Positions 2,507-16,420 of a stretch of 64,000 nucleotides of DNA are shown here, piece by piece. Location of the stretch: sequence record OR699282.2; one strand, 5' to 3'. Made by a program: the position numbers and the translations under genes. Each line of letters starts with the position of its first letter. Within the stretch, counting starts at the first letter, position 1. The stretch comes from Escherichia phage BAU.Micro_ELP-22. A model generated the notes under the pieces. The model was not told where the DNA came from, did not search any database, and saw nothing but the letters and a program-made list of their open reading frames with translations.

Positions 2507-2746
2507 ATGGCAAAATCAAAAATGTTCTTAGGTCACAAAAACAAAACTCATTGGAATGTAAGCCTGTGGATTAATAACGATGAGGGATTGTATCGGTTGG
2601 CCCTGGATTTTATTAACGACAACACTAATCGCAATGATGCGGCCCGTCATATGATGTTATTTTTAGAACAGACTGGACAAGATAAAACACCGGACGGATT
2701 CAAATATAGCACTACTGCGATCCGTGCGGCGATGGTTGGAATGTAA
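2507..2746 (+). CDS. hypothetical protein, early paralog family A (79 aa)
   Basis: Track ORF 2468 trimmed to ATG 2507 (SD AAGAGGA); paralog of 4620..4859 (GHKNKTHWNVSLWINN ... TPDGFKYSTTAIRAAMVGM). Confidence 0.7.
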   Translation: MAKSKMFLGHKNKTHWNVSLWINNDEGLYRLALDFINDNTNRNDAARHMMLFLEQTGQDKTPDGFKYSTTAIRAAMVGM

Positions 2747-2765
2747 TAGAATAGAATTTATTTAA

Positions 2766-2799
2766 AGTACTATCGCAAAAAATGATAGTACTTTATAAT
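2766..2799 (+). promoter_or_regulatory. Promoter-like site with AGTACT inverted repeat
   Basis: AGTACTATC...GATAGTACT inverted repeat 2766-2792, TATAAT 2794-2799; no clear -35. Confidence 0.45.
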
Positions 2800-2836
2800 A
2801 GTGTTTTATTCATACACCAACGATAAGGGCAACAGC

Positions 2837-3103
2837 ATGAATATTAAGTATTTTGCGACGCGTGAACAAGCTCGGATCGCCGCACGCCAGGACGGGGCAA
2901 CGTTTAAAGATATGGGCGTACAATCGGAACGTGGTAAACGTTGGGCCATTGTAAAGCGTAGTACCGCCAGATCATTACAGTACTGGTTAGCGGCCTTAAA
3001 AAGTCCCGATAGTGTATCGCGTCGAGTGGTAGAAATAAAGCTCGACCGAAAGGGCAACCGCGTGACCGTGTACCGTACTAAAAAGATTGCAGTACTTGAA
3101 TAA
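2837..3103 (+). CDS. hypothetical protein, early paralog family B (88 aa)
   Basis: Track ORF 2801 trimmed to ATG 2837; N-terminal YFATREQARIAAR..TFKDMG and C-terminal DRKGNRVTVY shared with 16025..16420. Confidence 0.65.
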   Translation: MNIKYFATREQARIAARQDGATFKDMGVQSERGKRWAIVKRSTARSLQYWLAALKSPDSVSRRVVEIKLDRKGNRVTVYRTKKIAVLE

Positions 3104-3105
3104 AA

Positions 3106-3169
3106 AGTACTTGCAAACTAAGTTTAAAAGCGTATAATGTTTTACATCGAGAGCGGGAACACTTCCCGC
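3106..3169 (+). promoter_or_regulatory. PeSL-like promoter cassette
   Basis: AGTACT 3106-3111, TTGCAA 3111-3116, TATAAT 3133-3138, hairpin GCGGGAACACTTCCCGC 3153-3169. Confidence 0.7.
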
Positions 3170-3190
3170 CTATAACCTGGAGTAATAAAA

Positions 3191-3421
3191 ATGACTAATA
3201 TGTATATGACTGAAGTTAAAACCGTAAAAGATACTACCACAAATAAAGTTACTTACTTACAGCGGATCTGTGGTGTATGGCAACGTATCAGCAAATCAAA
3301 GTACTTTAAATTAACATCATATGCAAACCGTTCGGATTCATTCAGTACTGAAATAAAAGGTAATAAAGTACACCAATATGGCACTTATTATTATTATAGC
3401 CTGGACGCGATTGCAGTATAA
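3191..3421 (+). CDS. hypothetical protein (76 aa)
   Basis: ATG 3191 with SD GGAG; follows PeSL. Confidence 0.7.
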   Translation: MTNMYMTEVKTVKDTTTNKVTYLQRICGVWQRISKSKYFKLTSYANRSDSFSTEIKGNKVHQYGTYYYYSLDAIAV

Positions 3422-3451
3422 GCAGTTTACAAATCTTTACAATTGCCGGTA

Positions 3452-3530
3452 TTGACTTATTTTGTCAGTACTGGCATAATGTATTCATTGGCAGATAAGC
3501 CGTAGCCCATAGGGTGCGGGAGTGTATCTA
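3452..3530 (+). repeat. Repeated intergenic element, type A (promoter-like + conserved GCCCAyAGGGTGC segment)
   Basis: TTGACT 3452-3457, CATAAT 3475-3480, then CATTG..AGATA..TAGCCCATAGGGTGCGGGAGTGTATCT; related copies at 10639, 14687, 17668, 19931. Confidence 0.6.
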
Positions 3531-3561
3531 TAGAAAAATTAGTTTAGTATAGTTACAATTG

Positions 3562-3625
3562 TGCACCCGGTGGGTTAGCTGTTGTCATGTGGTATATTAT
3601 GCCAGTACTTGATAATGCTGTCAAT
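3562..3625 (-). repeat. Repeated intergenic element, type B (minus-strand promoter-like + CTAACCCACCGGGTGC)
   Basis: Reverse complement reads TTGACA-17-CATAAT then ..CTAACCCACCGGGTGCAC; convergent with element at 3452-3530; similar to 5798-5869 and 12313-12388. Confidence 0.55.
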
Positions 3626-3665
3626 ACTTTTTTTTACTATTCAGTACTGAAAACTATTTTTAAAA

Positions 3666-3698
3666 AGTACTTGCAAACTATGTTTAAAGGCGTATAAT
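3666..3698 (+). promoter_or_regulatory. PeSL-type promoter driving a non-coding element
   Basis: AGTACT 3666-3671, TTGCAA 3671-3676, TATAAT 3693-3698. Confidence 0.65.
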
Positions 3699-3705
3699 GT
3701 TTTAC

Positions 3706-3780
3706 ATCAGGACGGGGAACGAAATAAGTAACTTCCCGTTAAGTAGCCCAGGAGTAAGGCACACGAAAAACTCCCCTGAT
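3706..3780 (+). ncRNA. Candidate small structured RNA (repeated about 75-nt element)
   Basis: Starts at predicted TSS; closing helix ATCAGG/CCTGAT plus internal helix ACGGGGAA/TTCCCGT; no ATG; second copy at 14831-14903 with substitutions and a 2-nt indel. Confidence 0.4.
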
Positions 3781-3788
3781 AAAATAGT

Positions 3789-3816
3789 TTGACAAATGTT
3801 TTTAAAAGCGTATAAT
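3789..3816 (+). promoter_or_regulatory. sigma70-like promoter
   Basis: TTGACA 3789-3794, 16-bp spacer, TATAAT 3811-3816. Confidence 0.6.
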
Positions 3817-3848
3817 ACTTACATCAACTACTGAATGAGGGTTACAAA

Positions 3849-4537
3849 ATGAAAACTATCACTACTACTACTTTCGTTATGGATTTTTCTGAATTGAACG
3901 CAGAACAAAAAACGTCAGCTATCGAACTGGTTCGGGAACGTGAAAAAAACTCAAACGACATTTTTCTGAATTGAACGCAGAACAAAAAACGTCAGCTATC
4001 GAACTGGTTCGGGAACGTGAAAAAAACTCAAACGACAATTATTTTTCTGAAAGTGAAATTGAATACTATAAAGAAACAGTACTACCGGAATATGGCATTA
4101 ATGACGCTGAAATACAATTCAGTGGTTTTTGGTCCCAGGGTGACGGTGCATCAATCAGTACTGACCACGTTGACGCAGTGAAGTTTTTACGCAAGGTAAG
4201 AGCATTAACTAAGTATCGCTCAATCCGTCACTTGCTGAATGAAGATGATTTGGCGATGAGTGTAAAGCGTTCGCACTCCCACTACTCGCATGAGAATACT
4301 GTAAGCGGGTACATTGAATCGGCTTACACTGATTTAACCGCAAAACAAGAAACGTTAGTTAATGAGCTTGAGGAACTACTCACTGAAACTATTCGTGAAT
4401 TGTCCCGCAAGTTGTACCGTGATTTAGAGAATGCATATGAGGATCAATTCACTACTGAAAACATTACGGCACTGATTGAGGGTAACGAGTATCAATTCAA
4501 TGTTATTGATGGCGTAGTGGAATCAATCGAATATTAA
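3849..4537 (+). pseudogene. Acidic hypothetical protein gene disrupted by a 77-bp perfect tandem duplication
   Basis: ATG 3849; units 3884-3960 and 3961-4037 identical; 77 is not a multiple of 3, so frame from 3849 stops at 3972-3974 and the remainder (3971..4537) lacks an ATG; removing one unit restores one ORF. Confidence 0.7.
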
Positions 4538-4544
4538 TTTAAAA

Positions 4545-4600
4545 AGTACTTGTTTAAAGGCGTATAATACTTTATATCGAGGCGGGGAGTGGTTCCCCGC
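4545..4600 (+). promoter_or_regulatory. Degenerate PeSL cassette (shortened spacer)
   Basis: AGTACT 4545-4550, TATAAT 4563-4568 but -35/-10 spacing collapsed relative to other copies; hairpin GCGGGGAGTGGTTCCCCGC 4582-4600. Confidence 0.4.
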
Positions 4601-4619
4601 TCAAACGAGGATTAAAAAA

Positions 4620-4859
4620 ATGGCTAGTACTAAAACTTACAACGGGCACAAAAACAAAACTCATTGGAATGTAAGCCTTTGGATTAATAACGGTGAGTCA
4701 TTGTATCGGCTTGCTCAAAGTTGCATCGCACAAAGTAGAACTAAAGATATTGCAGCGGAATGTATGTACCGCAGATTAAAAGCCAACGGTACTACTACAA
4801 CGCCGGACGGATTCAAATATAGCACTACTGCGATCCGTGCGGCGATGGTTGGAATGTAA
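4620..4859 (+). CDS. hypothetical protein, early paralog family A (79 aa)
   Basis: ATG 4620, SD GAGGA; paralog of 2507..2746. Confidence 0.7.
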   Translation: MASTKTYNGHKNKTHWNVSLWINNGESLYRLAQSCIAQSRTKDIAAECMYRRLKANGTTTTPDGFKYSTTAIRAAMVGM

Positions 4860-4916
4860 TATTCAGTACTGAGATAATGGCGGGTAATAGTTCCCGCCTT
4901 TACTGAGGGTTATCTA

Positions 4917-5204
4917 ATGAGTAAAGTAATAAAGTACAATGTGTTAAGCAAATCATTGTCTATCAGTGAATGCACCGATGGTTTTTGGATGTACGATGAA
5001 ACGCGTGGCATGAATTTAGCTATGCGTGCAAAAACTGCTGAGGCGGCGTATATTCAAGCACTGGAATACTACCAGGAACGTTTAAAGGAAGTAGAAGAAG
5101 ATTATAAAAGCCTCAAAGCGAAAGTAGATCATTTCGTCGGTCAATTCGTGGAAGACAACGACGAGGACGGGCACTACTGCGACCGTTGCGGATCTTACAG
5201 TTAA
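4917..5204 (+). CDS. hypothetical protein (95 aa), C-terminal Cys pair
   Basis: ATG 4917, SD GAGGG; start context CTGAGGGTTATCTAATGAGT repeated at next gene. Confidence 0.65.
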   Translation: MSKVIKYNVLSKSLSISECTDGFWMYDETRGMNLAMRAKTAEAAYIQALEYYQERLKEVEEDYKSLKAKVDHFVGQFVEDNDEDGHYCDRCGSYS

Positions 5205-5221
5205 GTACTGAGGATTATCTA

Positions 5222-5425
5222 ATGAGTGATTTAATCGACCGCATCAAAGAGCTTGAAGAAAAAGAATTGCAGTTGATCGGGTTACGGAATAAAGTATTCC
5301 ATGATTTAGGTGGCTTTATTAATGCCTGGGATAGTGGCGATCCTGATGCGTTACCTGCTAACCGCCAGGCGATGATCAATGATGTGCGTGGTGTCTTTGA
5401 GTATGTTTTAAAGCAATTAAATTAA
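5222..5425 (+). CDS. hypothetical protein (67 aa)
   Basis: Track ORF 5186 (TTG) trimmed to ATG 5222; SD GAGGA. Confidence 0.65.
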   Translation: MSDLIDRIKELEEKELQLIGLRNKVFHDLGGFINAWDSGDPDALPANRQAMINDVRGVFEYVLKQLN

Positions 5426-5428
5426 AAA

Positions 5429-5492
5429 AGTACTTGCAATTAGTTTTCAGTACTGTATAATGGTTTACATCAAAGGGAGAAATGGTTCTCCC
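5429..5492 (+). promoter_or_regulatory. PeSL-like promoter cassette
   Basis: AGTACT 5429-5434, TTGCAA 5434-5439, TATAAT 5456-5461, hairpin GGGAGAAATGGTTCTCCC 5475-5492. Confidence 0.7.
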
Positions 5493-5511
5493 TGGTAATG
5501 AGGAAAATAAA

Positions 5512-5733
5512 ATGGCAAATATCACTACTCTTTCCCAACTGGAAGCACTGGTTAAATCTATGCGGGAACATGCCGACAAAATCGGCGTACAAGATCCAGC
5601 CGTTTGCTTCTGCGACGAATTGAATGATGATACCCTGGTAATAGCAGAAGTCCAGGACGTTTCTAACTATTCCTCGCGTTACACTGGCGGCGTAGCAAAT
5701 AAAGGTGACTTCTGTTTATACCTTACAAAATAA
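5512..5733 (+). CDS. hypothetical protein (73 aa)
   Basis: Track ORF 5482 trimmed to ATG 5512; SD GAGGAA. Confidence 0.7.
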   Translation: MANITTLSQLEALVKSMREHADKIGVQDPAVCFCDELNDDTLVIAEVQDVSNYSSRYTGGVANKGDFCLYLTK

Positions 5734-5738
5734 CAACG

Positions 5739-5768
5739 CGGGGAGATAATAACTCCCCGTTACTTTTT
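5739..5768 (+). terminator. Rho-independent terminator
   Basis: Stem CGGGGAG/CTCCCCG 5739-5759 with loop ATAATAA, then TTACTTTTTC. Confidence 0.65.
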
Positions 5769-5797
5769 CAGTACTGAATCATTTAATAGACGGATCT

Positions 5798-5869
5798 CGG
5801 CACCCGGTGGGTTAGTGACTGTTTCGTCTTGATGTAGTAATTATGCCAGTACTGGATGCACTTGTCAAC
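5798..5869 (-). repeat. Repeated intergenic element, type B
   Basis: Reverse complement: TTGACA-17-CATAAT then ACATCAAGACGAAACAGTCACTAACCCACCGGGTGC. Confidence 0.55.
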
Positions 5870-5901
5870 AACTATTTTTCAAATACTTTTTATTAAAATA
5901 C

Positions 5902-5954
5902 TTGCTAATAGTTTTTAAACGCGTATAATGTTTTGCATAGGGGAGCGGTTCCCC
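5902..5954 (+). promoter_or_regulatory. PeSL-like promoter cassette
   Basis: TTGCTA 5902-5907, TATAAT 5924-5929, hairpin GGGGAGCGGTTCCCC 5940-5954. Confidence 0.65.
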
Positions 5955-5975
5955 TGGTAACTAAGGAATAAGAAA

Positions 5976-6212
5976 ATGCTTGAACAAATCAAATCAACGT
6001 CTGCTAATGTAACGGGAACGGTATCACACTTTATTGGTGATGAATCGCGGGGCGTTCCCTATTGTGCTGTACATGTAAACACTGAGGGTAACTACTGGTT
6101 TACGGTTTACGGATCATATTCATTTGGACGGCCAGGGCATCAAAAAATTCTGGATAAAGTACAGCCAACGGGTAAAAATATCACGGCTGAAATGTTTTAT
6201 AAAAAATCATAA
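5976..6212 (+). CDS. hypothetical protein (78 aa)
   Basis: ATG 5976, SD AAGGAA. Confidence 0.7.
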   Translation: MLEQIKSTSANVTGTVSHFIGDESRGVPYCAVHVNTEGNYWFTVYGSYSFGRPGHQKILDKVQPTGKNITAEMFYKKS

Positions 6213-6276
6213 AGTACTTGATAATAGTTTTTAGTACTGTATAATATTTTACATAGCACGGGGGAGCGGTTCCCCC
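6213..6276 (+). promoter_or_regulatory. PeSL-like promoter cassette
   Basis: AGTACT 6213-6218, TTGATA 6218-6223, TATAAT 6240-6245, hairpin GGGGGAGCGGTTCCCCC 6260-6276. Confidence 0.7.
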
Positions 6277-6296
6277 TGGTAACTAAGGATAATCAA

Positions 6297-6596
6297 ATGA
6301 AAATTGCAATCATCGCCCTGGCTTTATCTGTTTCCTCTTTCGCTGTTAATGCGTCGTTAGATGTGAGTAGTGAAAAATTCATTCAGTGCACTGTTGCGAT
6401 GACCAATGAAAGTACGGGCGAGATTGTTTTAAAGGATTTAGAGATCCAGCCACAAGCATTTAAAAACGGGCCGTTCCATGAAGAAGACGAAAACGGTAGC
6501 ACAACCATTTACTATGATGCCAGTACTAAACGCGGTTCGGTCACGGTTATGGATACTGAGAAAGTAACTCATACAGGCGTTATTAATTGCCGTTGA
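6297..6596 (+). CDS. small secreted/periplasmic protein (99 aa) with N-terminal signal peptide
   Basis: MKIAIIALALSVSSFAVNA-SLD: basic N-terminus, hydrophobic core, AxA-like cleavage motif; SD AAGGA. Confidence 0.65.
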   Translation: MKIAIIALALSVSSFAVNASLDVSSEKFIQCTVAMTNESTGEIVLKDLEIQPQAFKNGPFHEEDENGSTTIYYDASTKRGSVTVMDTEKVTHTGVINCR

Positions 6597-6617
6597 TTGA
6601 TACTACGGGGTAACATC

Positions 6618-6848
6618 ATGACAGCACGAATAGTTTTACTTAACGAAAGCAGTACTACACAACTACTTAACGCCGTGCATTATGATATTGAAACGAGCGT
6701 TAATCTTATCAGTACTGTCGTACTGTTGGACACTGGAAAGGTCGCCAATGATAAAGCGATTGCAGGTATACTAACGGATCTTGAGCCTGGTAGCAGTGCA
6801 CCAATAACGTTAAATGGTAAAGTGTTTAACATTTTACTTACTGATTAA
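6618..6848 (+). CDS. hypothetical protein (76 aa)
   Basis: Track ORF 6597 trimmed to ATG 6618 (GGGG upstream); immediately follows 6297..6596. Confidence 0.55.
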   Translation: MTARIVLLNESSTTQLLNAVHYDIETSVNLISTVVLLDTGKVANDKAIAGILTDLEPGSSAPITLNGKVFNILLTD

Positions 6849-6854
6849 GTACAT

Positions 6855-6883
6855 AGCCCACCTGGTGGGCTTTTTTGTTTTTG
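6855..6883 (+). terminator. Rho-independent terminator
   Basis: AGCCCACC..GGTGGGCT stem followed by TTTTTTGTTTTTG. Confidence 0.7.
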
Positions 6884-6930
6884 TAGTATCGTAGTACTGA
6901 GATACTTTGAAAATAGTTTTAAAAAAGTAG

Positions 6931-6958
6931 TTGACATTACCGCAGAAAAGCGTAGAAT
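6931..6958 (+). promoter_or_regulatory. sigma70-like promoter
   Basis: TTGACA 6931-6936, 16-bp spacer, TAGAAT 6953-6958. Confidence 0.6.
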
Positions 6959-6965
6959 GTATTAC

Positions 6966-7027
6966 ATCAAGACGGGGAGCACTAAGTAGACCGCCAGTAA
7001 GTCGAACGAAAAACTGGACACGTCGAG
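6966..7027 (+). ncRNA. Diverged third copy of the candidate structured RNA element
   Basis: ATCAAGACGGGGAGC..AAGTAG..CAGTAAG..ACGAAAAACT resembles 3706-3780 and 14831-14903; no ORF. Confidence 0.3.
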
Positions 7028-7081
7028 AAAACTTTGATACACTAATAAACGTAAACTAAACTTTAATTGAGGATTTATAAA

Positions 7082-7564
7082 ATGGCTAATGTAAAATCAT
7101 TCATCAAAGCACTGGTAGCAAATGAAACTAACGTCGCGGCTGAGATCCTGGCTGAACTGGATAACGATACCATGAAAGCGGTACGCAATAATTTTAACAT
7201 CGCGTACAGTACTGCGAAAGAACTACAAGCAAATAAAGCGGCAGAAATTGAAGCGGCAAAGGCGGCCCGTGAAGCAGAACTACAAGCAACAATCGAAAGT
7301 ATTCAGGCGGCAGTAGTTGGATTGGATCTGGAAGTAGTTACAGAGATGGCACAAAAAGCCCTGGCGGTTAAGTATGGGGAAGACAAGCCAGAAGTAAAAG
7401 CCAAAAAATGGATTCAGGAACGCGTAGCGGTAGTACTGGACAACGGGGAAGAATATCTGATTCCGGTGCGTGGTAACTGTATTGCGGTAGTACTGGACGC
7501 GATTAACTCCAGTGGTATGACTCGCGAGGAATGGATCGAAGCTCATCGCAAAGTTGAAGCATAA
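7082..7564 (+). CDS. hypothetical protein (160 aa), Ala/Glu-rich helical N-terminus
   Basis: Track ORF 7067 trimmed to ATG 7082, SD GAGGA; followed by strong terminator. Confidence 0.7.
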   Translation: MANVKSFIKALVANETNVAAEILAELDNDTMKAVRNNFNIAYSTAKELQANKAAEIEAAKAAREAELQATIESIQAAVVGLDLEVVTEMAQKALAVKYGEDKPEVKAKKWIQERVAVVLDNGEEYLIPVRGNCIAVVLDAINSSGMTREEWIEAHRKVEA

Positions 7565-7585
7565 CAATTAAAGTACTGAATCACT

Positions 7586-7613
7586 AGCCCACCTTAAACG
7601 GTGGGCTTTTTTG
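7586..7613 (+). terminator. Rho-independent terminator
   Basis: AGCCCACC-TTAAAC-GGTGGGCT then TTTTTTG. Confidence 0.8.
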
Positions 7614-7761
7614 TGTTTATCGTTTACCAGGCCACCAGCACCGCCTAGAAACGATTCTAACGCATTAAACTGATTATCTGATGCATTGCCCTAGCTGGTG
7701 GCGTTAAGGTCGTTGTAATGCGATTGAGAGCGTTTAAAGTATTTTGCAAAAAGTAATAAAA

Positions 7762-8077: not shown

Positions 8078-8080
8078 AAA

Positions 8081-11206: not shown

Positions 11207-11265
11207 TTGACAATAGATTATAGTACTGTATAATAGTTTACATCAAGGGGAGAATAGTTCTCCCC
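11207..11265 (+). promoter_or_regulatory. PeSL-like promoter cassette
   Basis: TTGACA 11207-11212, TATAAT 11229-11234, hairpin GGGGAGAATAGTTCTCCCC 11247-11265. Confidence 0.7.
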
Positions 11266-11287
11266 ACTAACAGAGAGAGAAAACAAA

Positions 11288-11500
11288 ATGGCTAATATCC
11301 GGTCGAAATTAAAAAATGCAAAACAAGTTTTATTTTCAGATCATGAATACTTTAATAAAGATATTACAGGAGTTACAAGTATCAAGGAAGTAAAAGAAAA
11401 AACCGGCGTTTTGTGTGATGTGCGATTAGTTGGAACATTTGGGAATAACGTGCTATATCGCTGCGGTGATTACAATTTTACACTGACTATCATTAACTAA
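11288..11500 (+). CDS. hypothetical protein (70 aa)
   Basis: ATG 11288, SD-like GAGAGAGA. Confidence 0.65.
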   Translation: MANIRSKLKNAKQVLFSDHEYFNKDITGVTSIKEVKEKTGVLCDVRLVGTFGNNVLYRCGDYNFTLTIIN

Positions 11501-11512
11501 AAATATTATCAC

Positions 11513-11548
11513 AGTACTATTGACATAGTTTGATAGTACTGACATAAT
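11513..11548 (+). promoter_or_regulatory. Class-II promoter
   Basis: AGTACT 11513-11518, TTGACA 11520-11525, AGTACT 11535-11540, CATAAT 11543-11548. Confidence 0.65.
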
Positions 11549-11582
11549 AACTTTTATCAACTACACTACTAAGGAATTAAAA

Positions 11583-11762
11583 ATGGCTATCATCGCAAAA
11601 ACTGAAATCATCGGCCTGGATTCTATCATCATGACGTTTGAAGATCAAAAAGGTATGTATGTGGTTTCCTATGGTGATTATGTTCGGGAGTATGAAACGG
11701 TAGACGAAGCCTTTGAAAGTTACATTCGCCAGGTGAATAAAGCATACGACGACTACCGCTAA
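11583..11762 (+). CDS. hypothetical protein (59 aa), not in ORF track
   Basis: ATG 11583 with SD AAGGAA; downstream of class-II promoter. Confidence 0.55.
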   Translation: MAIIAKTEIIGLDSIIMTFEDQKGMYVVSYGDYVREYETVDEAFESYIRQVNKAYDDYR

Positions 11763-11773
11763 AATATATTACC

Positions 11774-11817
11774 AGTACTATTAAATCTATTGACAATGTT
11801 TGATAGTACTGTATAAT
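11774..11817 (+). promoter_or_regulatory. Class-II promoter
   Basis: AGTACT upstream, TTGACA 11790-11795, TATAAT 11812-11817. Confidence 0.6.
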
Positions 11818-11861
11818 AAGTTTTATCAACAGTAGTTAACTTAACCTAAGAGAGAAACAAA

Positions 11862-12005
11862 ATGATCGCACTGGATTCATTCATCGACGCAGTACTGGCA
11901 AAAACTGGCGAGGATCTGACCGCAGAACAATACGCAATGATCGAGCAATGCCAGCAAGACGGTAAATCGGTGAAAGATACTGTTAAGATTATCCGCAAGA
12001 TGTAA
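11862..12005 (+). CDS. hypothetical protein (47 aa), not in ORF track
   Basis: ATG 11862 with SD AAGAGAGA; followed by stem-loop 12012-12037. Confidence 0.5.
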   Translation: MIALDSFIDAVLAKTGEDLTAEQYAMIEQCQQDGKSVKDTVKIIRKM

Positions 12006-12011
12006 GATTAT

Positions 12012-12040
12012 AGCCCACTGGTTAACGCTGGTGGGCTTTA
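12012..12040 (+). terminator. Stem-loop, possible terminator (weak U-run)
   Basis: AGCCCAC..GTGGGCT then TTTAATTC. Confidence 0.45.
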
Positions 12041-12110
12041 ATTCATTACCCTATACAATGCCAGTACTAAACCGTTTATCTCGTTAGAATGCGTTACAGG
12101 ACGTTTAACA

Positions 12111-12308
12111 ATGATTAGCATGAAATCAGTACAAAAACAAATAGAAACATTATCAAAAATTAAACGTAAACAGTACTCCTTAGAATATACAATCAATGGT
12201 AACTATCATCTAATGAAAGAAAATAATTTTATAGTCATTGATGAATCATTGCAAATCATTAGTATAGTACTGAAAGCATTAATCAATGACAGAAAAAAAT
12301 TAAAATAA
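12111..12308 (+). CDS. hypothetical protein (65 aa)
   Basis: ATG 12111; weak SD; AT-rich. Confidence 0.4.
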   Translation: MISMKSVQKQIETLSKIKRKQYSLEYTINGNYHLMKENNFIVIDESLQIISIVLKALINDRKKLK

Positions 12309-12312
12309 ACTA

Positions 12313-12388
12313 TTGACAATATCATCCAGTACTGGCATAATACTTACATCAAGACGAGAACGTCACTAACCCATAGGGTGCACAAATG
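12313..12388 (+). repeat. Repeated intergenic element (B-type sequence, plus orientation)
   Basis: TTGACA 12313-12318, CATAAT 12336-12341, then ACATCAAGACGAGAACGTCACTAACCCATAGGGTGCACA. Confidence 0.55.
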
Positions 12389-12403
12389 TAACTGTATAAT
12401 ATT

Positions 12404-12434
12404 GATCAAAAAATGATCTGATCAATACTTGATC
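12404..12434. promoter_or_regulatory. Cluster of four GATC sites (TGATCA repeats)
   Basis: GATC at 12404, 12415, 12420, 12431 within 31 bp, directly downstream of TATAAT 12395-12400. Confidence 0.4.
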
Positions 12435-12639
12435 AATTTGCGTAAAGTAGTATAATTCTATGCAGTTGGTTAGACGAAAGGTTATGATTAGTAGTGCAAG
12501 TGTATAAAAATTTTCATGGTGTATCGTTCCGCACATATGGGGATGAATATGTGGTATCATGTGGATTGGAAAAAGTAAGAACAAGTAATATTATTGTCGC
12601 ATTACAGTACTATAGTATTTTTATAATGAGGTTAAAATA

Positions 12640-12897
12640 ATGGCTGTAGGATTCGCGAAAGATGGGGCCGAACAAGACGAGATTAACGCAGTGATTCAGG
12701 CTGCCGTTAACCACGCTAGAAAGCAAATTAACGCACAAATAGAATCACTGATACATTGCCTCGACTGCGGCGATATAATCCCTGAGAAACGACGCCAGGC
12801 CGTTAAGGGATGTAAGTACTGCATAACTTGCCAGGAGGATCATGATAGTACTTTTAAACGTCCCCCGCGTAATTGTTGGCATAGATCTATGAGATAA
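12640..12897 (+). CDS. TraR/DksA-family C4 zinc-finger protein (85 aa)
   Basis: C-x2-C...C-x2-C (CLDCGDIIPEKRRQAVKGCKYCITC) C-terminal zinc-finger arrangement typical of TraR/DksA; SD GAGG. Confidence 0.7.
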   Translation: MAVGFAKDGAEQDEINAVIQAAVNHARKQINAQIESLIHCLDCGDIIPEKRRQAVKGCKYCITCQEDHDSTFKRPPRNCWHRSMR

Positions 12898-12904
12898 AAA
12901 GTAA

Positions 12905-12932
12905 TTGACAGTACTGAAAGATAGTGTATAAT
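12905..12932 (+). promoter_or_regulatory. sigma70-like promoter
   Basis: TTGACA 12905-12910, 16-bp spacer with CAGTACTG, TATAAT 12927-12932. Confidence 0.65.
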
Positions 12933-12961
12933 GTTTTATATCTTAACTGAGGATAGTAATC

Positions 12962-13318
12962 ATGGGAATACAACATATCACGCGTACTACTGACAATGGC
13001 GAGATCACTGGCTATCAAGTACAGGGCAAAGTAGCACAATTGCAGTACTGGTTTGTTAAACGTGGAATCATTGCACCGGATCTTGATTATGACCGTGTAG
13101 CGTTTATTGATTCTCTTTATGTTGATCCTGATAGTCGGGGCAATGGTGAAGGTAACGAATTAATGAATGCCTTTATCGATGCCGCCGATGATTCAGATTG
13201 TATCATCTTAGAATGCGATACGGGAGAAGATAACGCCTTTAATCTTAAAGAATGGTACGAAGGTTTCGGATTCGAGGTATTGATAGATAGTGAATATCCT
13301 ATCATGATTTTATCATAG
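12962..13318 (+). CDS. GNAT-family N-acetyltransferase (118 aa)
   Basis: IDSLYVDPDSRGNGEGNELMNAFIDAA matches the GNAT acetyl-CoA binding motif (V-x-P-x-x-R-G-x-G); SD GAGGA. Confidence 0.65.
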   Translation: MGIQHITRTTDNGEITGYQVQGKVAQLQYWFVKRGIIAPDLDYDRVAFIDSLYVDPDSRGNGEGNELMNAFIDAADDSDCIILECDTGEDNAFNLKEWYEGFGFEVLIDSEYPIMILS

Positions 13319-13378
13319 TACTTGCATTTAGTTTTCAGTACTGTTATAGTACTTGCATCAAGGGGAAACATCTTCCCC
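13317..13378 (+). promoter_or_regulatory. PeSL-like promoter cassette
   Basis: AGTACT 13317-13322, TTGCAT 13322-13327, TATAGT 13345-13350, hairpin GGGGAA-ACAT-CTTCCCC 13363-13378. Confidence 0.6.
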
Positions 13379-13396
13379 TACTAAGAGGAAATAAAA

Positions 13397-13585
13397 ATGG
13401 AAAACTTATCAAGTATTTTAGTACAAGATGATTTCGGTAATCCTGGAAGTGCTATCATTGTTCGGGGTAATAAAGCAACATTTGTTATTGCTGGTGGACC
13501 TGTACAGCGTAGCATTAAAAACAATGCCGTTACTATTAATAATGTACGCTATCGCTTAGATAAAGAATTGATTCATAAACTGTAA
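13397..13585 (+). CDS. hypothetical protein (62 aa)
   Basis: ATG 13397, SD AAGAGGAA. Confidence 0.65.
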   Translation: MENLSSILVQDDFGNPGSAIIVRGNKATFVIAGGPVQRSIKNNAVTINNVRYRLDKELIHKL

Positions 13586-13612
13586 TATTAATTTAATAGA
13601 GGATAACAATAA

Positions 13613-13936
13613 ATGTACATTCATACTACTATCACAAAGGAAGTCCGTTGCCAGTTCGAAAGTATTCCGGGCGTATGTTTCATCACTGGTACGTTTTCCC
13701 CTGGTGATCGTGATAATCCAGTACTGTTACAATTACGCCATCCATCATGGGATAAAGCATTTGATCTACCGTTGAATGAATTCGCAACTACTGCTGAAAA
13801 GTACATTAAAAATATTCGCGAGAATGATCGACTATTCATTAATGCTTTTAGTGATTCCGCGTTAAGCGAGATCCACGGCGTATTGGTTGCAATCATGGAA
13901 TCAATGCAGAAAACTAAATTCAAACAAGGTGAATAA
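13613..13936 (+). CDS. hypothetical protein (107 aa)
   Basis: ATG 13613, SD AGAGGA; no own promoter, likely co-transcribed. Confidence 0.65.
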   Translation: MYIHTTITKEVRCQFESIPGVCFITGTFSPGDRDNPVLLQLRHPSWDKAFDLPLNEFATTAEKYIKNIRENDRLFINAFSDSALSEIHGVLVAIMESMQKTKFKQGE

Positions 13937-13942
13937 AAACTA

Positions 13943-14002
13943 TTGACAATGCAATCCAGTACTGTATAATAAGTTACATGAAGGGGAGAAATGATTCTCC
14001 CC
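13943..14002 (+). promoter_or_regulatory. PeSL-like promoter cassette
   Basis: TTGACA 13943-13948, TATAAT 13965-13970, hairpin GGGGAGAAATGATTCTCCCC 13983-14002. Confidence 0.7.
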
Positions 14003-14019
14003 ACTGAGAGGAAAGAAAA

Positions 14020-14232
14020 ATGCAAGGTCAACTAATCGTTCGTAAATGGTCTGATACTAACGAAAAACCGTGGGATGTACAATACATCGGACCGGATGGG
14101 GTATCACGTTATCAGCCTGGCGTAACGCATAGTACTGAGCAATATGCCGCCGCTCACCGCGAACGCCTGTTAGAATCCATGAAACAGGGATACGGTGAAA
14201 AATTCATTCAAGATCATTGGCTGAAAGATTAA
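14020..14232 (+). CDS. hypothetical protein (70 aa)
   Basis: ATG 14020, SD GAGAGGAAAG. Confidence 0.7.
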   Translation: MQGQLIVRKWSDTNEKPWDVQYIGPDGVSRYQPGVTHSTEQYAAAHRERLLESMKQGYGEKFIQDHWLKD

Positions 14233-14249
14233 TAGAAGGAGTACAGCTT

Positions 14250-14342
14250 ATGCAAATGAATCCGATGATTATTGTTTTAGCTGTACTTATGATCATTCAT
14301 GCAATTGTAGAAGTATTAACGCAATCAGGAGTAATAAAATGA
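14250..14342 (+). CDS. tiny hydrophobic peptide (30 aa), candidate membrane peptide
   Basis: ATG 14250 with strong SD AAGGAG at 7 nt; MQMNPMIIVLAVLMIIHAIVEVL hydrophobic; not in ORF track. Confidence 0.5.
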   Translation: MQMNPMIIVLAVLMIIHAIVEVLTQSGVIK

Positions 14343-14512
14343 TTCAAGTAGAATTATCAGTACTGAAAGATCTGTTTTATCGGTTAGGTACTACTGGAGA
14401 GTATCCTAAAAGTGATACCGCAAAACTTTTTGTATCACTCGACTTATGGCAACGCGAACAATTAGTAATGTCCTGGCGTAAAGGTAAAGCAGATAGCGAG
14501 GTGAAAGCATGA
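14339..14512 (+). CDS. hypothetical protein (57 aa)
   Basis: ATG 14339 overlaps upstream stop (ATGA); not in ORF track. Confidence 0.45.
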   Translation: MIQVELSVLKDLFYRLGTTGEYPKSDTAKLFVSLDLWQREQLVMSWRKGKADSEVKA

Positions 14513-14658
14513 AAGAATTCTTATTCGAAGTAGTGTTTCAAGGTGTCGGTAGTAACCAACTGATTCGCTCAAGTGGTTACAATGTTAACCAGGCATGGAA
14601 TAACATTAAACAAATGTACCCGAACGCTATCACCTATCGCAACCCGAAAGAAGTTTAA
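14509..14658 (+). CDS. hypothetical protein (49 aa)
   Basis: ATG 14509 overlaps upstream stop (ATGA); third member of a coupled mini-operon. Confidence 0.45.
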   Translation: MKEFLFEVVFQGVGSNQLIRSSGYNVNQAWNNIKQMYPNAITYRNPKEV

Positions 14659-14686
14659 AAATAATTGAAAAAGGGATTGACTCCGG

Positions 14687-14750
14687 TCAGTCCCTTTGCT
14701 ATTATATACGCATAGAAACAAATCAGCCCACAGGGTGCATAAATGTATCT
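14687..14750 (+). repeat. Repeated intergenic element, type A
   Basis: TTGACTCCGGTCAGTCCCTTTGCTATTATAT then CGCATAGAAACAAATCAGCCCACAGGGTGCATAAATGTATCT. Confidence 0.6.
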
Positions 14751-14790
14751 ATTGTTAGCTGGTGGCTAGTACTGAAAACTATTTTTAAAA

Positions 14791-14823
14791 AGTACTTGCA
14801 TTGTACTTAGAATCAAGTATAAT
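14791..14823 (+). promoter_or_regulatory. PeSL-type promoter driving non-coding element
   Basis: AGTACT 14791-14796, TTGCAT 14796-14801, TATAAT 14818-14823. Confidence 0.65.
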
Positions 14824-14830
14824 GTTTTAC

Positions 14831-14903
14831 ATCAGGACGGGGAACGAAACAAGTAACCCCGTTAAGTAGTCCAGGAGTAAGACATACGAAAACCTCCCCT
14901 GAT
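14831..14903 (+). ncRNA. Candidate small structured RNA (second copy)
   Basis: ATCAGGACGGGGAACGAAACAAGTAACCCCGTTAAGTAGTCCAGGAGTAAGACATACGAAAACCTCCCCTGAT; same layout as 3706-3780. Confidence 0.4.
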
Positions 14904-14911
14904 AAAAAAGA

Positions 14912-14940
14912 TTGACAATAGTTTGAAGTACTGATAAAAT
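14912..14940 (+). promoter_or_regulatory. sigma70-like promoter
   Basis: TTGACA 14912-14917, 17-bp spacer with AGTACT, TAAAAT 14935-14940. Confidence 0.5.
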
Positions 14941-14972
14941 AATCACATCAACTACTGATAAGGAAACATAAA

Positions 14973-15248
14973 ATGCGGATTCTACTGACAGCTAACGAAA
15001 TCGAACAAGTACTGACTACTAACCTGGAAGACTGGAAACGTGAAGCAGATATCCAGGCGGTTCAATGGCTTAACGATAAGTTAACGCCGGATGACTTAAG
15101 CAAGATTGTAGATCCTCAATTCTACGAAGATATTCACGACACCGCGTTAAGCGTCGAGGATGTACTAGATAAGCACTACATTGATACTGATTTGCAGGTT
15201 TACGGTCGTAAAAACTTTATCACTATTCACGATATTTACAATAATTAA
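14973..15248 (+). CDS. hypothetical protein (91 aa)
   Basis: ATG 14973, SD AAGGAA. Confidence 0.7.
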   Translation: MRILLTANEIEQVLTTNLEDWKREADIQAVQWLNDKLTPDDLSKIVDPQFYEDIHDTALSVEDVLDKHYIDTDLQVYGRKNFITIHDIYNN

Positions 15249-15249
15249 G

Positions 15250-15310
15250 TATTGACAAAGTATCTTAGTACTGTATAATAGTTTACATCGAGAGGGGGAA
15301 TGGTTCCCCT
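15250..15310 (+). promoter_or_regulatory. PeSL-like promoter cassette (identical 44-bp promoter, copy 1 of 3)
   Basis: TTGACA 15252-15257, TATAAT 15274-15279, hairpin GGGGGAATGGTTCCCC; same promoter at 15519 and 18096. Confidence 0.7.
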
Positions 15311-15334
15311 CCTAACTAAAAGAGAGAAATAAAA

Positions 15335-15517
15335 ATGGCTAAGTGCACTATCTGTAATAAAGAAATAGTATTAGTTCCAAGTGCCCGTGAACGTGCCGCT
15401 CGGTTCGGTGGCAAAGCGTCAGACTATACAAAAATGTTTACTGCCCATACAGCTTGCCAGGTAGCAAAACGTTCACAAGAAAGCGTAGAATTAATGCGTA
15501 AACTTTCCAAAAAATAA
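15335..15517 (+). CDS. small Cys-containing protein (60 aa)
   Basis: ATG 15335; CTICNKE ... HTACQ possible zinc-ribbon; SD-like AGAGAGA. Confidence 0.65.
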   Translation: MAKCTICNKEIVLVPSARERAARFGGKASDYTKMFTAHTACQVAKRSQESVELMRKLSKK

Positions 15518-15518
15518 G

Positions 15519-15582
15519 TATTGACAAAGTATCTTAGTACTGTATAATAGTTTACATCAAGTGAGGGGAAACGGTTCCCCTC
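15519..15582 (+). promoter_or_regulatory. PeSL-like promoter cassette (copy 2 of 3)
   Basis: TTGACA 15521-15526, TATAAT 15543-15548, hairpin GAGGGGAAACGGTTCCCCTC 15564-15582. Confidence 0.7.
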
Positions 15583-15605
15583 CTAACAAAGAGAGAGAAA
15601 TAAAA

Positions 15606-15929
15606 ATGGCTATGATCCTTACCCAGAAAGTGGAACTGAAAATTGTAACCTCCTTTGACATTAACGTTAATCGGTGGACTGATTCACACGGCAATACTTA
15701 CCACTCTTGCTACGTGTCTGCTTTAATTGGCGACCGCTGGGAAGACCTGGGACACGAAACCTTTACATACGGTTACGGTACACAAGGCGAATACACGGGC
15801 TTGGAGATCATTAAAGAAACCGTTATAGGTTTCAACCCGAAAGAAAAAGTTATTCACCGCATCGAGGAAGAGATCAACAAAGAAATAACAGTTCGCTACC
15901 ACGATGTAAAACGTAAGAAAGACATGTAA
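15606..15929 (+). CDS. hypothetical protein, early paralog family C (107 aa)
   Basis: Track ORF 15561 trimmed to ATG 15606; paralog of 8398..8721. Confidence 0.7.
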   Translation: MAMILTQKVELKIVTSFDINVNRWTDSHGNTYHSCYVSALIGDRWEDLGHETFTYGYGTQGEYTGLEIIKETVIGFNPKEKVIHRIEEEINKEITVRYHDVKRKKDM

Positions 15930-15943
15930 TAGAATCCATTTAA

Positions 15944-15980
15944 AGTACTATTTGACATTGCCCAGATAGTACTTTATAAT
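15944..15980 (+). promoter_or_regulatory. Class-II promoter
   Basis: AGTACT 15944-15949, TTGACA 15952-15957, 17-bp spacer with AGTACT, TATAAT 15975-15980. Confidence 0.65.
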
Positions 15981-16024
15981 AGACTCTAACTTGTAGTACT
16001 AACTTAACTAATAGGATGTATACC

Positions 16025-16420
16025 ATGATTACTAAATTCTACGCTACCCGTGAAGCTGCCCGTATTGTTGCACGCGAGGAAGGCGAAACATTTAAAGACA
16101 TGGGCAAAGATGCACCGAAAGGTCAACGCTGGGCCGTACAGTTCAAAGAGATCTCTGATATTGTGAATTCACCGGAGCCAGTACTAACAGCAGCAGAACT
16201 AAAACGAGCGGATTTACTGGCGTCAATACTTGATGCACAAGATGAGTTTATCGCTGATTCTGATATCAAAGTACAGACAAACCATACCGCATGGACTCAC
16301 GCGGATCACCTGGCAAACCTTAAGCGTCCAAGTGAACTGATTCGCAACCAGAAAGAGATCCGACACGACCGTAAGGGTAATCGTGTAACAGTATACAGTA
16401 AACGCCGCCAGGTTATCTAA
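16025..16420 (+). CDS. hypothetical protein, early paralog family B (131 aa)
   Basis: ATG 16025 (SD AGGA at 8 nt; alternative ATG 16016); paralog of 2837..3103. Confidence 0.65.
   Translation: MITKFYATREAARIVAREEGETFKDMGKDAPKGQRWAVQFKEISDIVNSPEPVLTAAELKRADLLASILDAQDEFIADSDIKVQTNHTAWTHADHLANLKRPSELIRNQKEIRHDRKGNRVTVYSKRRQVI

Follow-up and report, generated by a model that had tools for sequence, protein, structure and literature searches.

The left end of the jumbo coliphage Escherichia phage BAU.Micro_ELP-22 (OR699282.2) carries three pairs of related small genes whose members lie kilobases apart, which raises the question of how such dispersed pairs came about. A preliminary description of the window (the whole stretch of 64,000 nucleotides analysed here) ascribed them to cassette-mediated duplication and transposition, each copy with a promoter cassette of its own. 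We consider it most probable, at roughly 65%, that the pairs are old products of cassette-mediated module shuffling within and between phages, kept by selection.

The window corresponds to the left end of an Asteriusvirus genome of the 121Q/PBECO4 group, among the RaK2-like jumbo phages. A direct terminal repeat (DTR) probably extends over 1..21406 (+ strand), collinear with the DTR annotated at 1-21525 in OQ718158; in fEgEco12 the DTR has been demonstrated experimentally (PMC13070987). About 55 small one-gene modules on the + strand and all of the cassettes lie inside the repeat (bases 1 to ~21,400), and sigma70-type promoters together with the terminal position suggest that these genes act early. 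Related genomes cover 37% to 82% of a 15-kb stretch of the repeat, in 3-15 aligned pieces. The terminal repeat is a hyperplastic region of small variable ORFans and the site of the shuffling. A Pfam scan of 47 repeat proteins returned only ParE-like, DksA/TraR zinc-finger, GNAT and DUF domains, and none of recombinase, transposase or homing-endonuclease type. The window also has head-to-tail arrays of paralogues, at 21.5-27.3 kb and 36.8-40.3 kb.

The pairs are formed by p1a (2507..2746) and p1b (4620..4859), p2a (2837..3103) and p2b (16025..16420), and p3a (8398..8721) and p3b (15606..15929), all on the + strand. Their relatedness, as first described, is borne out: p1a and p1b share 63% identity over all 79 aa without gaps (BLASTP E 7e-36), p2a and p2b 35% (E 2e-19), with the N- and C-terminal blocks aligned, and p3a and p3b 36% over all 107 aa, again ungapped (E 2e-27). 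When all 347 ORFs of the window were compared with one another by BLASTP (E 5e-33, 5e-17 and 6e-25 for pairs 1, 2 and 3), these were the only dispersed pairs in 1-21 kb, and HMM profiles recovered no further members of the three families there. Each pair falls into a single PHROG (871, 8127 and 6246, respectively). The six paralogues have DUF7249 (pair 1) or no domain at all, and structural modelling of families 1 and 3 offered no clue to function.

Purifying selection acts on all six genes, as estimated by the dN/dS comparison that the preliminary description had proposed beside pairwise alignment. Omega between orthologues ranges from 0 to 0.5, well below 1 throughout (p1a, 0.07-0.18; p1b, 0.07-0.10; p2a, 0-0.15; p2b, 0.21-0.29; p3a, about 0.5; p3b, 0.09-0.12), and counterparts with 84-100% aa identity are found in 20-40 phages sequenced independently. 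The pairs keep the same slots in most relatives and are fixed across the genus, and between the copies of pairs 2 and 3 synonymous sites are saturated. Recent transposition of any pair is thereby ruled out; for pairs 2 and 3 the saturation also places timing and direction beyond recovery.

Modules in the repeat follow one order: an AT-rich stretch, a predicted sigma70 promoter, often a GC-rich hairpin opening the leader, a Shine-Dalgarno sequence and a small ORF, the Shine-Dalgarno and start codon of the downstream gene making up the 3' end of the cassette. A 68-nt cassette family is present in at least 24 copies, and exact TTGNNN-N16-18-TANAAT sites number 30 in 1-21 kb vs 6 in the other 43 kb. 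Two cassette classes, with and without a hairpin, stand side by side. Leaders fold at -9 kcal/mol or below in 29/46 cases (about 60%), those of p1a, p1b and p3b at -14 to -16 kcal/mol (z -2.4 to -3.4); the hairpin is absent from 17/46 upstream regions, including those of p2a, p2b and p3a. The predicted hairpin lies a constant ~12-15 nt downstream of the -10 box and is therefore probably transcribed, as a 5' leader hairpin. Cassettes are mostly most similar to those physically adjacent to them. Homologous cassettes also occur in Phapecoctavirus; Phapecoctavirus nieznany has the same promoter-hairpin-Shine-Dalgarno architecture, and homologues of seven adjacent early genes of this phage are dispersed and reordered across the window's repeat.

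Recombination between these repeated cassettes adds, removes and relocates single-gene modules in the repeat, a conclusion that is well supported. In 7/7 gene indels examined against relatives, the genome that lacks the gene has a hybrid cassette, its 5' side corresponding to the left cassette and its 3' side to the right one, the crossover lying within the identical core of the promoter; informative sites at the seven junctions change a single time from left-type to right-type. Unique breakpoints fall mostly (36/43) in intergenic regions +/-15 nt, which amount to 38% of the sequence (p = 7e-10), and at 10 junctions the aligned pieces overlap by 43-103 bp. Selection against broken genes would likewise concentrate breakpoints at gene boundaries, and only the hybrid-cassette pattern argues specifically for recombination between cassettes. 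Genes have changed slots as well: in 121Q the p1b slot is occupied by a homologue of gene 5976, and in EJP2 the genes of p1a and p1b type stand in each other's slots. Events inside genes were also seen: a tandem duplication of 77 nt occupies 3883-4037, and an indel lies inside 9123-9395. A transposable element with its own enzyme was considered and rejected, given that no such domain was found by Pfam in the 47 proteins and that the seven junctions look like those of plain homologous exchange.

Pair 2 appears to be a lineage-specific duplication that took its promoter along. Family 2 is represented by a short form of 88 aa (p2a) and a long form of 131 aa (p2b), the latter having a central linker of ~45 aa that is missing from p2a and resembling the single copy of RaK2-type phages. 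The two promoter regions (p2a, 2747..2836; p2b, 15930..16024; both + strand) are homologous and begin directly past the preceding stop codon. That of p2b comprises TTGACA (15952-15957), a 17-nt spacer and TATAAT (15975-15980); that of p2a has a good -10 (2794-2799) and a degenerate -35 (ATCGCA, 2772-2777). Full-length family 2 is found only in RaK2-like jumbo phages, as a single copy in Alcyoneusvirus and as two copies in Asteriusvirus, and the closest-relative test is accordingly compatible with true paralogues. In the left slot of EJP2, EJP2_516 is a chimera whose promoter, leader and N-terminus are p2b-like and whose C-terminus is p2a-like.

The members of pair 1, in contrast, are not each other's closest relatives, since p1a is 92% identical in aa (82% in nt) to gene g124 of P. 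nieznany vs 63% to p1b. Family 1 is widespread (287 phage records). In neighbour-joining trees, built here from proteins of 79-107 aa, p1a and the Phapecoctavirus-type genes with which it shares its allele type split off the p1b clade in 100% of bootstraps; that clade is confined to Asteriusvirus among phage records, and p1b is absent from its slot in 121Q and several others. The p1a cassette (2418..2506, + strand) consists of a -35 (TTGCAA, 2428-2433), a 16-nt spacer, a -10 (TATAAT, 2450-2455), a leader hairpin of -14 kcal/mol (2468-2486) and a Shine-Dalgarno (2492-2498). The p1b cassette (4540..4619, + strand) has its -10 at 4563-4568, hairpin at 4581-4601 and Shine-Dalgarno at 4606-4611, and a 9-nt deletion (GCAAACTAA), seen in this genome only, took its -35 and part of the spacer. 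The corresponding span is 3-15 nt longer in every deposited relative with a complete region, and vB_Ec-M-J and phAPEC6, the two relatives aligned base by base, retain the 9 nt. The leader hairpin type and the Shine-Dalgarno region are common to p1a and p1b, as is the whole promoter in relatives.

Family 3 is also widespread (203 phage records, 1035 database proteins). Both members of pair 3 have nearer metagenomic relatives (45-50%) than each other; yet p3a, p3b and EJP2_015 group in a single major clade of the family by neighbour-joining, which may reflect an ancient duplication. Among 36 matched phage records, all close (>=90%) copies of p3b come from Asteriusvirus-type jumbo phages. The p3a slot is polymorphic: in phAPEC6 it holds gp525, a Phapecoctavirus-type allele with 81% aa and 78% nt identity to P. 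nieznany g125 and 37% aa identity to p3a, behind a promoter that matches the window's exactly as far as about +1. The cassettes of the pair belong to unrelated classes, each ranking 22-38 of 45 as a match for its partner. The hairpin-less p3a cassette (8300..8397, + strand; TTGACA 8326-8331, 17-nt spacer with TG, CATAAT 8349-8354) is 94% identical to the cassette at 11494-11560. The p3b cassette (15512..15605, + strand; TTGACA 15521-15526, 16-nt spacer, TATAAT 15543-15548, leader hairpin of -14.5 kcal/mol at 15563-15582) finds its nearest match in the neighbouring cassette at 15243-15334.

The earlier picture thus needs to be narrowed. Cassette-mediated duplication and transposition stands for the region, with its hybrids, breakpoints and slot changes, for pair 2 with its shared promoter and in part for pair 1, whose leader and Shine-Dalgarno are shared; it does not stand as a recent process, nor for the unrelated cassettes of pair 3, and the copies of pair 1 are not closest relatives. 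The comparison of flanking cassettes for shared ancestry, proposed at the outset, divides in the same way, linking the copies of pairs 1 and 2 but not those of pair 3. Likewise, all six copies do have promoter regions of their own, although p1b lacks a -35 here and that of p2a is degenerate.

Identical cores of 30-60 bp are common to the cassettes, and homologous recombination between them would therefore delete, insert, replace and relocate modules. Such exchange could take place inside one genome and between co-infecting phages with homologous cassettes, e.g. Phapecoctavirus. A promoter-plus-gene module may thus have been duplicated within the RaK2-like/Asteriusvirus lineage to give pair 2, p2a losing the central linker afterwards and the two loci later swapping sequence. 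Pairs 1 and 3 may instead derive from widespread early-gene families, two divergent allele classes of which now sit in two slots, the class of p1a, and of the p3a slot of phAPEC6, being that of Phapecoctavirus. The closeness of these two to Phapecoctavirus and the unrelated cassettes of pair 3 mean that, for pairs 1 and 3, allele capture from a gene pool common to several phages is at least as good an explanation as intragenomic duplication. We infer both the recombination machinery involved and the direction of transfer. Two copies have probably been kept for divergent specificities of host-takeover or counter-defence proteins. No junction directly recording the creation of these pairs was found, their flanks having since been overwritten.

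It is unlikely, in our judgement, that every pair was instead duplicated inside the lineage, one copy moving to a new slot together with its promoter cassette. Pair 2 fits such a history in its promoter region and copy numbers, the leader and promoter common to pair 1 and the single major clade of pair 3 agree with it, and modules have been relocated in 121Q and EJP2; but p1a is much nearer to Phapecoctavirus genes, among which neighbour-joining suggests that it is nested, the copies of pair 3 are nearer to metagenomic proteins and have unrelated cassettes, and no transposase or recombinase domain was found among the 47 repeat proteins scanned. The opposite extreme, in which all pairs are pseudo-paralogues acquired independently from other phages with no duplication at any time, appears somewhat more doubtful still. 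The wide distribution of families 1 and 3 and the cross-family near-identity of p1a and of the phAPEC6 allele speak for it, and the homologous cassettes of Phapecoctavirus could act as crossover sites, yet the restriction of full-length family 2 to RaK2-like phages, its copy numbers, the shared promoter region and the EJP2 chimera point to internal duplication followed by exchange.

Perhaps the cassettes had no mechanistic part, illegitimate recombination striking anywhere and selection purging the events that break genes. Survivor bias would by itself gather breakpoints between genes, and the intragenic events above do exist. Nonetheless, a single cassette with one left-to-right switch inside an identical core at 7/7 junctions, together with the long overlaps, is what homologous exchange between direct repeats, unlike random end joining, leaves behind, and makes this account very improbable. 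That the similarities reflect chance, ORF calling or an assembly artefact of the terminal repeat has practically nothing in its favour except the small size of the ORFs; it is refuted by the E-values, the conservation in relatives and omega, and a single copy of the repeat contains both members of each pair.

Old cassette-mediated shuffling, the reading that we prefer, has parallels in several known systems. In phage T5, a long terminal repeat contains small pre-early genes that are driven by strong host-type promoters and presumably begin host takeover, and the repeat described here is likewise a long direct terminal repeat packed with small promoter-led genes. We know of no two-step DNA transfer in Asteriusvirus, however, and of no uniform promoter-hairpin cassette ahead of nearly every gene in T5. 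In integrons, arrays of single-gene cassettes gain, lose and reorder their members through a repeated recombination sequence beside each gene. The modules of the repeat are similarly gained, lost and reordered at a repeated flanking sequence, but they come with no integrase or attC-type site and with a promoter each, and their junctions resemble plain homologous exchange, no recombinase domain being found in the repeat. Another comparison is offered by the tandem arrays of small paralogous genes in RaK2-like genomes, such as those of the window and of CBB, in which 22 paralogous ORFs were reported (PMC5259590). These arrays are head-to-tail, often translationally coupled and without individual promoter cassettes, whereas the three pairs are dispersed, 2-13 kb apart, with a promoter for each copy.

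The closest likeness is to the promoter-early stem-loops (PeSLs) of the T4-like phages RB49/phi1, T4/PST and KVP40/nt-1 (Arbiol et al. 2010, PMC2839356; Comeau et al. 2014, PMC4122927), studied by inverse PCR and reporter assays for mini-circles and stem-loop terminator activity (PMC2839356). Both systems repeat, between genes, an AT-rich stretch, a near-consensus sigma70 promoter, a G-run/C-run stem-loop, a Shine-Dalgarno and a start codon; both gather their cassettes in a hyperplastic region of small ORFans; and in both, close relatives differ by cassette-bounded insertions, deletions and replacements of single genes with chimeric junction cassettes. They differ in that the cassettes here occupy a 21-kb direct terminal repeat instead of hyperplastic regions in the genome interior, include a second, hairpin-less class and are shared, genes included, with another phage family (Phapecoctavirus). 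The hairpin, which in T4-like phages lies upstream of, within or overlapping the promoter, here lies downstream of the -10, near one of the five positions reported for phi1, but probably forms part of the transcript. As the genome is that of a RaK2-like jumbo phage, an Asteriusvirus outside the T4-like subfamily, we name the system PeSL-like in a new lineage. On this comparison, the cassette system of the repeat can be regarded as modular shuffling of the PeSL type, and the three pairs as conserved by-products of an already described process, a real but fairly ordinary finding.

Pairwise alignment bore out the preliminary description of three dispersed paralogue pairs among the early genes. 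By BLASTP, the products of 2507-2746 (p1a) and 4620-4859 (p1b) share 63% aa identity over all 79 residues (E 7e-36) and those of 8398-8721 (p3a) and 15606-15929 (p3b) 36% identity over all 107 residues (E 2e-27). Those of 2837-3103 (p2a) and 16025-16420 (p2b) share 35% identity (E 2e-19), with conserved N- and C-terminal blocks that are separated, in the long copy 16025-16420 only, by a linker of ~45 residues. Each pair falls into one PHROG, and pair 1 corresponds to Pfam DUF7249. In an all-against-all comparison of the 347 ORFs of the window, the first 21 kb contained no dispersed pairs beyond these three, and family profiles recovered no extra members of the three families there. A fourth pair, lost from the window, was suspected from the 94% identity of the cassettes (repeated intergenic promoter units before small early genes) at 8300-8366 and 11494-11560; it was rejected, as EcMJ_016, an extra gene of phage vB_Ec-M-J, is unrelated to EcMJ_025. 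The paralogue pairs themselves are ordinary, and it is the surrounding context that forms the useful result.

The dN/dS comparison likewise upheld the pairs. All six genes gave omega values of 0.07-0.5 between orthologues (vB_Ec-M-J, 121Q and phAPEC6), which marks them all as functional coding genes. When partners were compared, pairs 2 and 3 showed saturation at synonymous sites (pS 0.77-0.81), and pair 1 gave dS 0.62, dN 0.34 and omega 0.56, its differences clustering in the middle of the protein. The same three pairs, in the same slots (positions in the gene order) and with no other pairs, are found in vB_Ec-M-J and phAPEC6; in 121Q, p1b is missing and the other two pairs are present. The three pairs are old, mostly fixed features, and these genes are not undergoing ongoing transposition. 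Pfam and PHROGs place the six paralogues in uncharacterised families only, and the family 1 profile matched no solved structure. The family 1 model (four helices, pLDDT 82) had no significant fold match in PDB or BFVD, nor did the family 3 model (a three-stranded sheet with helices, pLDDT 91) in PDB (best E 0.02, TM <0.4); a faint resemblance of family 3 to an RNase-H-like fold was not trustworthy and was set aside. Their position, promoter type, purifying selection and the mid-protein differences of pair 1 suggest that two diverged copies are kept for different host targets.

The region 2000-17000 matches Asteriusvirus jumbo coliphages (BF17, vB_Ec-M-J, E9.1, 121Q, PBECO4, phAPEC6 and others) at 87-97% identity, with a coverage of just 37-82% that is broken into 3-15 pieces. 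The genome of vB_Ec-M-J is collinear with the window from base 1 and its record marks a direct terminal repeat at 1-21525, which places the repeat end near base 21,406 of the window; for the related phage fEgEco12, PhageTerm and restriction digests have verified a repeat of ~21 kb (PMC13070987). All promoter cassettes of the window lie inside the terminal repeat, where a 68-nt cassette family has at least 24 copies, and exact TTGNNN-N16-18-TANAAT sites number 30 in 1-21 kb versus 6 in the remaining 43 kb. Class A cassettes consist of a -35 box (TTGCAA, TTGCAT or TTGACA), a 16-nt spacer and TATAAT followed by a GC hairpin of -12 to -20 kcal/mol, with 46-57 nt from the -10 box to the ATG; class B cassettes have TTGACA, a 17-nt spacer with TG, and C/T/GATAAT without a hairpin. 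The claim that each copy has its own promoter cassette stood with caveats: p1a, p3b and p1b belong to class A and p3a to class B, p2b has a consensus promoter without a hairpin, and p2a has a p2b-type element whose -35 box is degenerate. A 9-nt deletion at 4545-4568 (GCAAACTAA) has taken the -35 box from the p1b promoter. These 9 nt are kept in both relatives aligned base by base, and among the 22 deposited relatives covering the whole p1b promoter region the best match reached at most 94.6%, all spans being 3-15 nt longer. Transcription of p1b may now rely on read-through from upstream. By analogy with stem-loops at the 5′ ends of E. coli mRNAs, the leader hairpin may protect the transcript.

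The terminal repeat showed clear marks of recombination at these cassettes. Against three relatives, 36 of the 43 unique alignment ends fall in intergenic DNA ±15 nt, a zone making up 38% of the sequence (p = 7e-10). This zone was adopted because many cassettes start at the final codons of the gene before them, and with the use of unique ends it supersedes a strict CDS-versus-intergenic test (27/64, p = 0.02). Selection against broken genes alone could yield an enrichment of breakpoints between genes, and the junctions were therefore inspected directly. For seven single-gene indels, comprising modules (cassette plus gene) present in the window (2191-2424, 9909-10160 and 15335-15517) and four present in relatives (at window positions ~8300, 16750, 18100 and 20090), three cassettes were aligned: the left one, the right one and the lone one of the genome lacking the gene. 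In all seven, the lone cassette was left-type at the 5′ informative sites and right-type at the 3′ sites, with one switch inside the identical promoter core, which is the mark of homologous recombination between direct repeats. Modules 2191-2424 and 15335-15517 directly precede p1a and p3b, respectively, and because of these flanking indels the p1a and p3b cassettes are most like those of their physical neighbours.

Slots have changed occupants as well. In 121Q, a homologue of gene 5976 (genes are named here by start coordinate) lies in the p1b slot and is missing from the window-equivalent position. Phage EJP2 (OQ411014.1) shares many genes with window 1-21,400, at 46-96% aa identity and in heavily permuted order: homologues of 11288-11583 come before 8802, 18729 before 18450, and 15335 between 5512 and 5976. 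Its p1b slot is taken by a block of 2191 and a p1a-type gene, and its left slot by a p1b-like gene and a long family 2 gene, making its terminal-repeat region a good natural experiment on module shuffling. A Pfam scan of 47 terminal-repeat proteins (window 1734-21,252) detected a ParE-like toxin domain in one (E 6e-11), a DksA/TraR zinc finger in another (12640-12897) and a GNAT acetyltransferase in a third (12962-13318), the remainder having DUF matches or none; searches of the entire window for Rfam families and tRNAs had no hits. Domains of recombinases, transposases or homing endonucleases were absent from the 47 proteins, and general recombination is therefore the economical explanation. 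The cassette mechanism operates in this region. The proposal of cassette-mediated duplication and transposition holds for the region, given the hybrid cassettes and slot changes, and for pair 2, while it oversimplifies pairs 1 and 3.

Duplication is best seen in pair 2. Full-length family 2, its distribution being defined by tblastn, is confined to RaK2-like jumbo phages, occurring singly in RaK2, K64-1 and Muenster and in two copies in Asteriusvirus. Comparison of the flanking cassettes pointed to common ancestry: the upstream regions of p2a and p2b are alike from the preceding stop codon (ATGTAATAGAAT...ATTTAAAGTACTAT...GATAGTACTTTATAATAG) and their promoter parts are reciprocal best matches. 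Moreover, EJP2_516, the family 2 gene in the left slot of EJP2, is p2b-like from its promoter and leader through the N-terminus to the linker (81% nt identity to 15924-16199) and p2a-like at the C-terminus (86% nt identity to 2990-3784). This chimera, together with the shared upstream region, indicates that p2a is the long form minus the linker and that both loci share history. Judged from these sequences, pair 2 is most probably a real duplication of a promoter-plus-gene module. An ancestral gene pair in RaK2 gained no support, as HMM profiles found no family 1 or 3 gene beside its single family 2 gene.

For the other two pairs, the capture of divergent alleles from a pool common to other phages fits at least as well as duplication. 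The flanking-cassette comparison gave a mixed answer for pair 1: the leader and Shine-Dalgarno regions of p1a and p1b are specifically alike, and the entire promoter is alike in relatives. Yet p1a has 92% aa (82% nt) identity with Phapecoctavirus nieznany gene 124, compared with just 63% aa identity with p1b. Neighbour-joining placed p1a within a group of genes from ~150-kb contigs, and the p1b clade contains Asteriusvirus-sized and short contigs exclusively; the unrooted tree separates p1a and the Phapecoctavirus types from the p1b clade in 100% of 300 bootstraps. In 121Q and several other genomes, the p1b slot lacks p1b. In pair 3 the flanking cassettes gave no sign of common ancestry, being of different classes, with the partner ranking 22-38 of 45. 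Within family 3 (~1000 members), p3a, p3b and EJP2_015 fall in one major clade, p3a and p3b each being nearer to metagenomic relatives (45-50%) than to the partner (36%). The p3a slot of phAPEC6 holds a gene that is 81% aa and 78% nt identical to nieznany g125, against 37% to p3a, and keeps the window's promoter up to ~+1. Here one allele has replaced another, and the left breakpoint of the exchange falls within the cassette.

Genes common to two phage families can be seen in nieznany, which has the same promoter, hairpin and Shine-Dalgarno architecture as the window and cassette parts that align with window cassettes at 77-90%. Seven adjacent nieznany genes have window homologues at 18181, 1734, 11583, 8398/15606, 2507/4620, 7850 and 2837/16025, in scrambled order, the homology to 2837/16025 being limited to the N-terminal domain. 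Some shuffled early genes and cassettes are 80-92% identical to those of another phage family, and dispersed homologues in such regions should not be read as simple duplications. Host-takeover or counter-defence genes thereby have a concrete, testable route along which they could spread among the virulent coliphages of therapy cocktails.

The palindrome AGTACT is the commonest hexamer of the window, with 255 sites against 17.5 ± 4.3 expected from dinucleotide shuffles (AAAAAA has 106). There are 137 sites in 1-21,300 and none in ~21,300-26,000 or 30,000-36,000. Each cassette carries about two sites, separated by ~20 bp, one immediately 5′ of the -35 box and the other in the spacer, and the motif is also found in coding regions in all three frames. 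A 16-20 fold excess is common to the loci of other Asteriusviruses and Klebsiella phage RaK2 and is missing at the Phapecoctavirus locus (1 site in 16 kb). We found no literature tying AGTACT to these phages, and its use as a marker of recently imported genes was abandoned, the genes being too short to inform.

Perhaps the terminal repeat of Asteriusvirus-type jumbo phages is an open exchange platform, integron-like without an integrase, whose modules cross families, and AGTACT is a dedicated site in it; we consider the two together improbable, at roughly one chance in eight. Homologous promoter-hairpin cassettes may let single early-gene modules cross phage families during co-infection with large coliphages that are unrelated, among them Phapecoctavirus and perhaps also Vequintavirinae and phi92-like phages. 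AGTACT, lying inside the crossover cores, may be a dedicated protein-binding or recombination-stimulating site and not a passive feature.

Other repeats accompany the cassettes. A perfect 77-nt tandem duplication at 3883-4037 (2.0 copies, 100% identity) shifts the frame of gene 3849-4537, intact in 121Q and phAPEC6, and splits it into ORFs of 41 and 188 aa; vB_Ec-M-J has another insertion at this site with the frame kept, and the duplication may be recent, may mark a hotspot or may be an artefact of sequencing. An orphan promoter has six copies in long intergenic gaps (3430-3560, 10615-10770, 12300-12420, 14653-14790, 17644-17790 and 19907-20060), four with a -35 TTGACT within a 12-bp hairpin, AAAGGGATTGACTCCGGTCAGTCCCTTT, then TATTAT, and an invariant element, CCCAYAGGGTGC...GTGTAWC, lies ~25 nt downstream. 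With no ORF downstream and no Rfam match, these units are candidate small RNAs or protein-binding sites. A ~200-nt non-coding repeat at 3635-3834 and 14768-14958 (84-88% identical; weaker at 6915-7085) carries a class A promoter, a ~75-nt conserved untranslated segment with two potential hairpins, and a second promoter that serves the unrelated genes 3849 and 14973; it may combine a small RNA with tandem promoters. Just past the terminal repeat start head-to-tail arrays of small paralogous genes (21,506-27,255; 29,955-31,920; 36,777-37,974; 37,984-40,296), without individual promoter cassettes and in lower-GC DNA (0.31); the array at 21,506-27,255 has ~27 genes of 65-96 aa with often overlapping stop and start codons and is largely without AGTACT. 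Finally, a degenerate tandem repeat at 779-907, with an 8-bp sub-period (GGATGGCT / AGACGGCT / AAACGGCT), lies ~0.8 kb from the left physical genome end in a 1.7-kb stretch without convincing genes and may be related to termini, packaging or replication.

The closest known system is that of the promoter-early stem-loops (PeSLs) of T4-like phages, which comprise an AT-rich stretch, a sigma70 promoter, a G/C stem-loop, a Shine-Dalgarno sequence and an ATG, cluster in hyperplastic regions and form chimeric motifs at indels (PMC2839356, PMC4122927). We found no description of the Asteriusvirus cassettes in the searchable literature, whose coverage is incomplete. The window cassettes share the anatomy and junction pattern of PeSLs, and the junction evidence for modular shuffling in this terminal repeat is unusually clean. 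They differ from PeSLs in their host lineage, a RaK2-like jumbo phage, in their location in a terminal repeat, in a hairpin uniformly placed downstream of the -10 box, in the presence of a hairpin-less class alongside the hairpin class, and in being common, with their genes, to different phage families. Shuffling in the 21-kb terminal repeat of this 350-kb phage is the same cassette-mediated modular process as in T4-like phages, and the finding is a new example, of modest interest, of a known type of system.
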